36,381 nucleotides of DNA from Candidatus Heimdallarchaeota archaeon (GTDB taxonomy: Archaea > Asgardarchaeota > Wukongarchaeia > Wukongarchaeales > JBHIFL01), in the NCBI GenBank assembly GCA_046761065.1, contig JBHIFL010000043.1:1-36381 (forward strand). Direction: 5' to 3'. Below the pieces are notes generated by a model that was given only the letters and a program-made list of their open reading frames with translations, made no database searches and was not told where the DNA came from. This document shows positions 13,034 through 16,105 of this stretch, in pieces. Within the stretch, counting starts at the first letter, position 1; each line of letters begins with the position of its first letter. Made by a program: the position numbers and the translations under genes.

Positions 13034-13822
13034 ATGATGAAAGTGATAAAGATATTAACTGCCTTTTTACTCTTTAGTTTTCTTGGTATCTCCGCCTACC
13101 AAGATTGGAAGACGCGGGAAGTCATGGATTGGGTTTGGATTACCTTTTTTGCTATTGGTCTAGTGATCAATGTAGTGAATGTCTTCACTGCGAGGAACCG
13201 GCTCCTGACTATAACCACAATTGCCCTTACTCTAATCATTGCCATCTCTATAGGCTTTATCCTCTTTTATCTTTACCTTTGGGGAGATGGAGATCTCTTC
13301 GTTTACATTTCTGCATCATTTATAACGGCAACGATGCCTATCTCTTATTTTTCACCGCATTCCTATGAAATCCTTCCATTCTCCGTTTCTGCACTAGTAA
13401 ATGCTTATTTCGTGACAATAATTCTTCCATTTTATCTAGTTCTACAGAATATATACCGGAGATTCCTGAAAGGTGAAAAAATTTTCAAAGATCTTAGGGC
13501 GTCCATGGGTCAAAAGATCTTCGCTGCCTTTGTGGGAAGACCCGTTCACCTGGAAGATTTACGTACAGGACGTATCACATTTTATACTCCCCTAGAAGAG
13601 AAACGAAGAGATGCGTGGTATTTGAAATTCCATTCAGGTATTGAATTGAGGGAGGAAGAACTTGCAGAGCGCAAAATTACGATCCTCAAGGAATTAGAAA
13701 TAGATCCTAAGTTCTATATATGGATTAGCTACAATATCCCCTTTTTAATTGCCTTGATGGTCGGCTTCGCCATAACAGCAATCTACGGAACCATCTTATT
13801 TCTGCTCTGGGTGCAACTCTAG
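13034..13822 (+). CDS. Peptidase A24 prepilin/prearchaellin peptidase (PibD/FlaK-like)
   Basis: Multi-pass membrane protein; AYQDWKTREV (first catalytic Asp), WGDGD (GxGD), C-terminal IWISYNIPFLIAL. Confidence 0.88.
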   Translation: MMKVIKILTAFLLFSFLGISAYQDWKTREVMDWVWITFFAIGLVINVVNVFTARNRLLTITTIALTLIIAISIGFILFYLYLWGDGDLFVYISASFITATMPISYFSPHSYEILPFSVSALVNAYFVTIILPFYLVLQNIYRRFLKGEKIFKDLRASMGQKIFAAFVGRPVHLEDLRTGRITFYTPLEEKRRDAWYLKFHSGIELREEELAERKITILKELEIDPKFYIWISYNIPFLIALMVGFAITAIYGTILFLLWVQL

Positions 13823-13881
13823 TCTTGGTGATTGATGGAAATAGATAAAAAATGAACTGCCGATTGGGATGTAGTAAGGAT

Positions 13882-14046
13882 AGCCCGGTGGTGTAGCGTA
13901 CCGTGGTACTACTACGGTCTATAAGCCAATCATCTCGGACTCTGGACTTCAACTAGTAACAAAATTTCCGAAGAGAGAAATCCGAGGACGCCGGTTCGAA
14001 AAATGATTCTATAGTGAATCTTTCGAAAATCCGGCCCGGGCTACCA
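13882..14046 (+). tRNA. tRNA-Gln(CTG) with three introns (13899-13924, 13946-13979, 14001-14029)
   Basis: Spliced 76-nt product AGCCCGGTGGTGTAGCG|GCCAATCATCTCGGACTCTGG|ATCCGAGGACGCCGGTTCGAA|TCCGGCCCGGGCTACCA forms a cloverleaf: acceptor AGCCCGG/CCGGGCT with the A1-U72 pair of archaeal tRNA-Gln, anticodon stem TCGGA/TCCGA, T-stem GCCGG/CCGGC, encoded CCA. Each intron junction has a 4-bp helix flanked by 3-nt bulges. Confidence 0.93.
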
Positions 14047-14170
14047 ATATAGGGTGTATCCACCTTTGAGGGTGGATTTGGTAGCAGAAATGCGTGGTTG
14101 TTAAAGGCCCTGATTTTTAATTCAGCCTTTAGATGGAGACATACACAAGGAAAAAGTAGGAGAGAATGTC

Positions 14171-14905
14171 TTGTCAACTGTAGAGTATACTGTGATCAAA
14201 AAGAAAATGGTAAATCAACTTACCACTTTGGGAGACCGTGTTAAAGGGCTAATCCTCTACGGATCTATCGCTAAAGGTGATGGTTTTTACATCCCTGGAG
14301 AAAGTGATATCGATTTTTATCTTGTAGTTGATGGAGAAGATGTCCTAAAAACATATGAAAATATCACTCGAATTATTGAAGGATTCCGAACTGAGCCACT
14401 TTTTGCACCGCTCCTAGATTTGCGAGTCGTGGAAGAGGAAGATATTCAACCAACGCCATATAATGCCTTTGGCACAATCCTAGCTCTGGGAGCCTCCCAA
14501 GGTGAAGTGTTGTTAGGTGAAAATGTCTTAAAAGATGTTGAATTCCCTGAAAAGGTCATTAAAGAAGCAACTAAGGCACTTATTGTCAATAGTTATGTGG
14601 GCTATACCGACATCCTCACGGGAGGGCATGGATTAGATCCCTATGGTATTGCGTTGGAGGGGGGGGAGCATGTCTTAGCTTGTGCGCATGCGTACTTGGC
14701 CTATGAGGGCGAAACAGAGCGTGTCCGCTACGAACTCCCTGAGATTTTTCAACAACACTACGGGAACACCACAAATTTCGATGCAGATATAGTTCTCGAA
14801 GCGCACCGCTATCGCTTAGGGATTCAAAAGATCGCTCCTGAGGAATTTATCCGCCTGGCATTTAAGTTCTGTAAAGCTATTAAAGAGCAAATAAGTCACG
14901 AATAA
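14171..14905 (+). CDS. Nucleotidyltransferase-domain protein (Pol beta superfamily) with a helical C-terminal domain
   Basis: LILYGSIAKGD...SDIDFYLVV and a later LDLRV motif; TTG start with AGGAG upstream. Confidence 0.8.
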   Translation: MSTVEYTVIKKKMVNQLTTLGDRVKGLILYGSIAKGDGFYIPGESDIDFYLVVDGEDVLKTYENITRIIEGFRTEPLFAPLLDLRVVEEEDIQPTPYNAFGTILALGASQGEVLLGENVLKDVEFPEKVIKEATKALIVNSYVGYTDILTGGHGLDPYGIALEGGEHVLACAHAYLAYEGETERVRYELPEIFQQHYGNTTNFDADIVLEAHRYRLGIQKIAPEEFIRLAFKFCKAIKEQISHE

Positions 14906-15169: not shown

Positions 15170-16105
15170 ATGCATTCGAACATCTCTGATTTTGTCGAGC
15201 AATTAGCGATTTTGGCGTCTGTGCTAGAAGTCTCCGCCTCACCCAAACCAGGTAATGTTCATCGTTTCAGAGATTTTGGGGATACAAAATTCGAGCATTT
15301 TTTAGGAGCTGCAGTCGGAGCAGGAGCAATTTGGCGAACAGCCGCGCATCGTGGGATATTGGCGGAGTTAGGCGAATTGGAGTTCAGCCAGATTGGTGTA
15401 GGTGATTGGGTTCTTGCAGCTATTAAAGAAGGGAAACGATGGCATACGGGTCGTAATCCAAACTTAGGGATTATTTTGCTACTTATTCCTCTCTGTGCTG
15501 CTGCAGGAGCCTCACTAGCCACCGGGAAACACTCGCTTCAGGAACTGAGAAATTCTTTAGGAACTATCCTCCGAAAAGCCACAGTCGAGGATGCAGTGGG
15601 AGTTGTAAAAGGCATTAATCTTGTAAACCCAGGTGGTCTTGGTCAAGTACAAAATTATTCCGTCACAGATCCTAACGTCATTGATCAATTGAAGAAAGAT
15701 GAAATTGACCTGCTTTCCTTATTCAAATTTTGTGCAGATCAAGATCTGATCTGTAACGAATATCTCTATTGTTACCAAATTACTTTTGAAGAAGGAGTTC
15801 CGATGTTTAAAAGAGAGATCTCTAAAGCGGACTTTAACCTAGCGACCATCCAAACCTTTTTGGGGCTTCTTGCAGCTCACCCTGACACCCTTGTTTCCCG
15901 AAAATTTGGTAAAGAAGTTGCCACTCAACTCAGTACAAGAACCAAGCATATTCTTAAAAAAGGTGGTGTTTATACAAGCGAAGGATGGCAAGAGGTTCTT
16001 TTATTTGATGAAGAACTCCATGAGGAGGGTATAAATCCTGGAACTATCGCCGATCTCACAGCAGCAACTCTTTTTGTTTGTCTCTATGATGGAACACGCC
16101 TTTAA
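15170..16105 (+). CDS. citG: Triphosphoribosyl-dephospho-CoA synthase-like (CitG family)
   Basis: LEVSASPKPGNVHR, NPNLGIILLLIPL, PDTLVSRKFG, INPGTIADL. Confidence 0.88.
   Translation: MHSNISDFVEQLAILASVLEVSASPKPGNVHRFRDFGDTKFEHFLGAAVGAGAIWRTAAHRGILAELGELEFSQIGVGDWVLAAIKEGKRWHTGRNPNLGIILLLIPLCAAAGASLATGKHSLQELRNSLGTILRKATVEDAVGVVKGINLVNPGGLGQVQNYSVTDPNVIDQLKKDEIDLLSLFKFCADQDLICNEYLYCYQITFEEGVPMFKREISKADFNLATIQTFLGLLAAHPDTLVSRKFGKEVATQLSTRTKHILKKGGVYTSEGWQEVLLFDEELHEEGINPGTIADLTAATLFVCLYDGTRL

Follow-up and report, generated by a model that had tools for sequence, protein, structure and literature searches.

Does a 165-nt stretch of archaeal DNA, in which standard programs see nothing, encode a tRNA, and by what route would a functional molecule be produced from it? 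The locus lies in a contig of which positions 1 to 36,381 (the window) were analysed, and the original prediction, made from the letters of the sequence, was that of a tRNA-Gln(CTG) gene interrupted by three introns. In the whole window, ARAGORN finds no tRNA and Rfam finds no family at the gathering threshold. ARAGORN is also blank on the unspliced locus when run with the intron option, and an Rfam search of positions 13850-14080 is blank even at E <= 10. The anatomy proposed for the locus is as follows (window positions).

13882..14046, plus strand: complete pre-tRNA-Gln(CUG) gene, 165 nt, four exons and three introns, with CCA encoded at 14044-14046
13882..13898, plus strand: exon 1, comprising the 5' strand of the acceptor stem, U8, the 5' strand of the D-stem and the D-loop up to G18
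13899..13924, plus strand: intron 1, 26 nt, in the D-loop between G18 and G19, with a relaxed HBh' motif
13925..13945, plus strand: exon 2, comprising the remaining D-arm, the 5' strand of the anticodon stem and the anticodon loop to G37, with the CTG anticodon at 13942-13944
13946..13979, plus strand: intron 2, 34 nt, at the canonical position 37/38, with a strict hBHBh' motif
13980..14000, plus strand: exon 3, comprising A38, the 3' strand of the anticodon stem, a 4-nt variable loop, the 5' strand of the T-stem and the T-loop to A59
14001..14029, plus strand: intron 3, 29 nt, in the T-loop at 59/60, with a strict hBHBh' motif whose outer helix is the T-stem
14030..14046, plus strand: exon 4, comprising U60, the 3' strand of the T-stem, the 3' strand of the acceptor stem, A73 and CCA
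13841..13852, plus strand: A/T-rich, TATA-like box, a putative promoter read from the sequence, located some 30-40 nt upstream of where the mature tRNA begins

The four exons (17+21+21+17 nt) add up to 76 nt and the introns (26+34+29 nt) to 89 of the 165 nt. ARAGORN, which is blind to the genomic form, recognizes the joined exons as a 76-nt tRNA-Gln(ctg) with a regular 7/4/5/5 cloverleaf and encoded CCA, in agreement with the earlier claim that cutting behind the second nucleotide of each bulge leaves a clean cloverleaf of this length. The anticodon loop and the T-loop of the product are 7 nt each, as in class I tRNAs, and its D-stem contains one U-U and one G-U pair. The conserved nucleotides of the ARAGORN product include U8, A14, G18G19, U33, G37, G53, TTCGAAT (with T54, T55, C56 and A58 all kept), C61 and A73. 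Comparison with the genes of 40 relatives shows that the A1:U72 pair and A73 match those of other Asgard tRNA-Gln. The G+C content is 66% in the exons versus 42% in the genome.

The splicing motifs were examined with a scan in which the geometry of the BHB, a 4-bp central helix (H) with a 3-nt bulge on each strand, flanked by one helix from the exon (h) and one from the intron (h'), was coded explicitly and checked against the canonical 37/38 case; the scan covered both strands of the whole genome. In all three introns, the central helix has 4 of 4 pairs and the 3-nt bulges lie on opposite strands. Intron 2 combines CTCT/AGAG with the bulges GG^A and AA^A, an inner helix CTTC/GAAG and the anticodon stem as the outer helix; intron 3 combines TTCG/CGAA with the bulges AA^A and AA^T and an inner helix 7 pairs long that includes one mismatch. 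These two introns belong to the strict class, with h of 5 pairs and h' of 4 pairs and 6/7 pairs, respectively. Intron 1 has the central helix GTAG/CTAT (one G-U), the bulges CG^T and AA^G and the inner helix ACCGTGG/CTACGGT with 7 consecutive pairs, and its outer helix has no consecutive pairs (3 of 5 positions pair), so that, for want of a regular outer helix, it falls into the relaxed HBh' class. In the minimum free energy (MFE) fold, the imperfect outer helix appears as paired UGGU/GCCA, which leaves a 2-nt 3' bulge; thus, this intron has a 5' bulge of 3 nt and a 3' bulge whose length, 2 or 3 nt, varies with the register.

Across the genome, the rate per pair of site and length is 1.8e-4 for strict motifs and 7.3e-4 for any accepted class. 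When the introns are shuffled in place (20,000 trials), the observed class is obtained in 0.07%, 0.03% and 0.3% of the trials for introns 1, 2 and 3, respectively. The acceptor stem and the three motifs are all formed at once in the MFE fold of the 165-nt precursor (-60.8 kcal/mol, z = -5.2), and none of 200 shuffled sequences folds as well. The predicted coordinates, lengths and motifs, including the relaxed character of intron 1, are thus reproduced by the sequence, the BHB scan and the precursor fold. The central helix of intron 1 draws on nucleotides 12-13 of the D-stem; given this and the missing regular outer helix, the precursor would have to adopt a fold in competition with the D-arm for this site to be cut.

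Comparison with other genomes provides evidence that does not depend on the motifs. A pattern search with the first 15 nt of exon 1 finds them once or twice in 92 of the 151 genomes sampled from the phylum, compared to a single match for the reversed control, and these occurrences mark the tRNA-Gln genes. A BLAST search with the whole locus against 40 relatives matches exon 1 alone. A tRNA-Gln gene without introns is found in L030 and in L024, two other Asgard genomes, and global alignment of the 165 nt with these genes opens gaps at 13899-13924, ~13947/8-13981 and ~13999/14001-14027/9, which coincide with the proposed introns exactly or to within 2 nt, the bases of intron 1 being exact against L030. 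A scan of metagenomic contigs for the gene pattern detects the same three introns in two contigs from a related organism, L060 and L061, whose synteny with the window extends beyond 10 kb at 84-86% identity. A comparison of the window with L060 shows substitutions at 0 of 76 exon, 13 of 89 intron and 12 of 75 flanking positions, with Fisher p = 2e-4 when the exons are set against the introns and 5e-5 when they are set against all the remainder. In intron 1, the two changes at paired positions convert G-U to G-C and to A-U; in intron 2, all 6 substitutions fall inside its 19-nt loop, and the MFE fold of the L060 version differs; in intron 3, one distal pair of the hairpin is broken. Given the invariant exons, the 13 intron changes and the kept motifs, the exons are evidently under strong selection, and the inserts drift at the background rate, a drift that leaves the cut-site geometry intact.

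Relaxed BHB rules are permissive in general, so a chance resemblance might be suspected, as might an artefact of assembly. Nevertheless, the joint chance of three motif matches at boundaries fixed by the alignments is ~1e-8 or less, and the locus sequence is identical in two independent Logan assemblies, of the runs SRR29324586 and SRR29324587; taken together with the orthologue in the syntenic contigs L060 and L061, this identity excludes assembly error. An origin by chance or artefact is accordingly refuted for all practical purposes, and we give it next to no credence.

A subtler alternative is that the gene is real and that intron 1 is not cut between G18 and G19, either because other bonds are used (e.g., those that release 28 nt, 13898-13925) or because an enlarged D-loop is kept. 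The outer helix of this intron is indeed irregular; D-arm inserts have been described as the class with the weakest motifs (bioRxiv 10.64898/2026.10.13.758758); and the BHB-like solution with 13897 as the last exon base and a length of 28 nt still yields a tRNA-Gln call by ARAGORN. The 28-nt solution, however, removes the conserved G18G19 pair, and only the 26-nt excision yields AGCGGCCAA, the D-loop of intron-free relatives and of members of the same order, which several relatives have uninterrupted. Furthermore, the intron has 4 pairs in H and 7 pairs in h', its 5' bulge measures 3 nt, and in L060 the two helix substitutions each make the pairing stronger. Accordingly, a different fate of intron 1 seems improbable, and excision of the 26-nt intron at G18/G19 is preferred.

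The assembly (91% complete, with an estimated contamination of 8%) was further searched for other glutamine tRNA genes. An intact tRNA-Gln(CTG) elsewhere in the genome had been named in advance as part of what would refute the prediction; a short-word BLAST search with the joined tRNA finds no second tRNA-Gln(CUG) in this assembly. The sole other glutamine gene is tRNA-Gln(UUG), at C41:9350-9478 on the minus strand, which contains two introns. One of these is a 32-nt intron at 37/38, and the other is a D-loop insert of ~21 nt after GGCCAA, with a weak motif, at the site of the single tRNA-Gln intron of the two order-mates discussed below. This gene, too, is undetected by ARAGORN, by Rfam and by the SPLITS-like census described below.

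The presence of tRNA-Gln(UUG) makes it conceivable that the locus in the window is a decaying, non-functional pseudogene and that CAG is read by the UUG isoacceptor alone. This interpretation has to contend with stems that are perfect or contain G-U pairs throughout, bar the one U-U in the D-stem, with exons that are invariant against ~15% divergence in the introns and flanks, with splicing motifs that are kept, and with the encoded CCA, the conserved upstream A/T box and the lack of a detectable second CUG gene in the assembly; it is, in our estimate, very unlikely. The upstream sequence TAAAAAATGAACTGCC (13846-13861), which overlaps the TATA-like box, is unchanged in L060 and L061, against a divergence of ~16% in the flanks.

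The surroundings of the gene show additional features. At 14060-14075, 14 nt downstream of the tRNA, there is a hairpin, CCACC-TTTGA-GGGTGG, followed by ATTT, the stem of which is kept in L060 and L061 with one change in the loop; it may be a terminator or a processing signal, or it may belong to the leader of the gene that follows (14171-14905). The adjoining genes on the plus strand encode an A24-type prepilin/preflagellin peptidase (13034-13822; PF01478, PF06847), a CitG-family protein (15170-16105) and an ATP-dependent DNA ligase (from ~16200 onward), and the order of these neighbours is kept in the metagenomic relative L060.

Altogether, a real gene for tRNA-Gln(CUG), interrupted by three introns of the endonuclease type, is the interpretation best compatible with these observations, and we assign it a probability of roughly 0.9; the original prediction is upheld in this respect by the ARAGORN call on the joined exons, by the alignments with the intron-free genes and by the conservation in L060, with splicing itself deduced from the sequence. 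In this scheme, a single-copy, functional tRNA-Gln(CUG) gene of an Asgard archaeon would be transcribed as a 165-nt precursor, the folding of which would place each insert in a BHB, i.e., a 4-bp helix between two 3-nt bulges. A heterotetrameric (alpha-beta)2 splicing endonuclease (EndA), with an L1/CSL loop in the catalytic subunit that permits relaxed motifs, would then cut behind the second bulge nucleotide on each side, and RtcB would ligate the four exons to produce the 76-nt tRNA. The order of these steps, like the cutting and the joining themselves, we infer from the observed anatomy, motifs, conservation pattern and presence of the enzymes.

The genome encodes RtcB and two EndA paralogues, each of which contains the PF01974 and PF02778 domains. 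The first of these (EndA alpha, 195 aa, encoded on C15) has its best PDB match in the catalytic subunit from A. pernix (3P1Z_B, E = 7e-41). No gap interrupts this alignment across the Crenarchaea-specific (L1/CSL) loop in the N-terminal domain, where IRKPK lies opposite VEKPR with a lysine at the position of K44, and the Tyr/His/Lys triad is kept (the sequence reads DHSPF and VRKR). In the second paralogue (EndA beta, 214 aa, encoded on C2), the catalytic histidine is replaced (DPAKL), and the L1 loop is 9 residues shorter than in EndA alpha. The pairing of a catalytic alpha with such a beta subunit is a textbook case. Judging by these sequence features, the two paralogues appear to form an (alpha-beta)2 enzyme of the L1/CSL type, which answers the question of EndA subunit architecture that had been proposed as a check and agrees with the expectation of a broad-specificity type of endonuclease, given that the alpha subunit carries the L1/CSL loop including the lysine and that the beta paralogue is without the catalytic histidine. 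The (alpha-beta)2 arrangement together with the loop lysine confers broad specificity, and an Asgard case that has the L1 loop was described in 2018 (PMC5829648).

The homologues of EndA alpha all come from Asgard archaea. The nearest named relatives of both EndA and RtcB are Asgard proteins as well, in line with the Asgard origin surmised from the sequence, and the RtcB is 94% identical to one that is labelled Hodarchaeota in NCBI. The GTDB class of the genome, a deep and very small one within Asgard archaea, comprises 3 species (GTDB r232).

The tRNA-Gln(CUG) gene is not exceptional within its genome. In the 4.4-Mb genome, ARAGORN identifies 3 tRNAs, all intron-free, and Rfam produces 12 matches to the tRNA model, many of them 90-132 nt long; together with the blindness of both programs to the unspliced DNA at the locus itself, these counts substantiate the concern that standard annotation would miss many tRNAs of this lineage. 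The corresponding number of Rfam tRNA matches is 11 in G037 and 15 in G013, both complete Asgard genomes, and 25-27 in two order-mates; the genome is thus as opaque to the Rfam tRNA model as the complete genomes G037 and G013. In a SPLITS-like census, combinations of BHB candidates were removed between acceptor-stem pairs, and the products were tested with ARAGORN. The census yields ~24 credible loci, or ~30 when loci with Rfam-only matches and tRNA-Gln(UUG) are added, with only 3 uninterrupted genes, these numbers being an uncurated lower bound in which some boundaries are wrong. At least 17 tRNA genes (including C5:44613-44744 on the minus strand and, with its intron 3, the gene in the window) contain an intron of 27-34 nt at exactly 59/60 (TTCRAA^...^TCC), so that, of the tRNA genes recognised, over half have this site filled, and these introns have no obvious common sequence beyond the motif.

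Multiple introns recur in other genes of the census. The tRNA-Leu(GAG) gene has a clean three-intron solution, and those of tRNA-Lys(UUU), tRNA-Lys(CUU) and tRNA-Pro(UGG) need 3-5 removals, with uncurated boundaries; the D-arm of the tRNA-Lys(UUU) product and the anticodon stem of the tRNA-Pro(UGG) product look imperfect. The tRNA-Pro(UGG) locus spans 226 nt on the minus strand of C28 (reverse-strand offsets 43178-43403) and is recognized by ARAGORN after five BHB-type removals, of 31, 27, 39, 23 and 31 nt; the boundaries need curation because the anticodon stem of this solution contains a C-C mismatch. An Rfam tRNA match at C208:1446-1536 on the minus strand resembles a second tRNA-Lys(UUU) with one D-arm insert, and it may derive from another organism, given the contamination estimate. 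Two census matches on C36 with 'introns' of 140-148 nt are probably false. The possibility that the introns encode box C/D guide RNAs was considered and dropped, the introns being too short and devoid of C/D boxes discernible by eye.

The main features of this gene have precedents. The earliest catalogue of three-intron tRNAs concerned Crenarchaeota (Sugahara et al. 2007, PMC1852824, as cited in PMC4090602), and the original prediction considered such tRNAs best described in Thermoproteales. That view is out of date, since Asgard genes with multiple introns have been published: Asgard genomes with 92-95% of the tRNA genes interrupted, more than half of these by multiple introns, were described by Valentin-Alvarado et al. 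(2024, PMC11291895), and a preprint by Goswami et al. (2026, bioRxiv 10.64898/2026.10.13.758758), covering 90 genomes, reports up to five inserts per gene. According to the same preprint, D-arm introns are preferentially missed by tRNAscan-SE and have the weakest motifs, T-arm introns are the cleanest, introns have been gained repeatedly in a lineage-specific manner, and most genomes encode two EndA paralogues. The three-intron tRNA-Gln(CUG) gene fits this published Asgard picture point by point. Specifically, it resembles the tRNA genes of Atabeyarchaeia and Freyarchaeia/Jordiarchaeia, which belong to the same phylum, in having more than one BHB intron in a gene, with both canonical and non-canonical sites in use, a D-arm intron of the kind that is missed, clean T-arm motifs and lineage-specific gains; unlike those, it comes from a genome in another, very small GTDB class.

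The tRNA genes of Thermoproteales (Sugahara et al. 2007, PMC1852824; Sugahara et al. 2008, cited in PMC4090602) are similar in containing up to three BHB introns per tRNA at non-canonical positions, relaxed hBH and HBh' motifs and an (alpha-beta)2 EndA with the CSL. They differ in that they belong to another phylum and their introns are unrelated in sequence, whereas in the present genome position 59/60 is the one that recurs in most recognised tRNA genes. With the Aeropyrum pernix EndA (PDB 3P1Z; Kaneta et al. 2018, PMC5829648), the endonuclease described here shares the CSL, the lysine at K44, the Y/H/K triad and a paralogue without the catalytic histidine; the beta paralogue, by contrast, resembles the EndA of M. 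jannaschii and M. kandleri more than it does the crenarchaeal beta subunits.

The closest comparison is with the tRNA-Gln genes of two genomes of the same order, G001 and G002. These have the same acceptor stem, D-arm and anticodon and also an interrupted D-loop, and ARAGORN finds none of them; in contrast to the gene in the window, each contains a single insert, ~26-28 nt long and placed behind GGCCAA, and is uninterrupted at 18/19, 37/38 and 59/60. Therefore, the three introns are specific to the family of the present genome and were either gained after the two families split or lost in G001 and G002. Among the 151 genomes sampled, the combination of 18/19, 37/38 and 59/60 in tRNA-Gln occurs only here, with one further occurrence in a metagenomic relative. 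The intron sites of tRNA-Gln also differ between other Asgard families (L033-L053), where they are located after GTGTAG (~15/16), after GGCCAA (~20/21), at 37/38, in the variable region and at 53/54, which illustrates repeated gains at one locus.

Given that both the phenomenon and its enzymatic background are already published, the value of this case is confirmatory and incremental. It offers a clean case, validated by comparison, in which an essential tRNA is present solely as four short exons. Because such a gene is invisible to ARAGORN and to the Rfam tRNA model, gene lists for Asgard genomes of this kind will fall short of the true number of tRNAs where no intron-aware method is applied. 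In addition, the case brings a lineage and the intron set 18/19, 37/38 and 59/60 to the record of repeated lineage-specific gain in the closest archaeal relatives of eukaryotes. A more tentative suggestion, which we regard as doubtful but worth stating, is that the genome represents a further, independently intron-saturated lineage, with ~90% of the recognised tRNA genes interrupted, the 59/60 site filled in more than half of them and the introns unrelated to one another. If this is true, saturation of a single site would point to site-directed arrival of introns, e.g., by the EndA/RtcB reaction running backwards at the T-loop, and not simply to insertions that occur at random and are tolerated.
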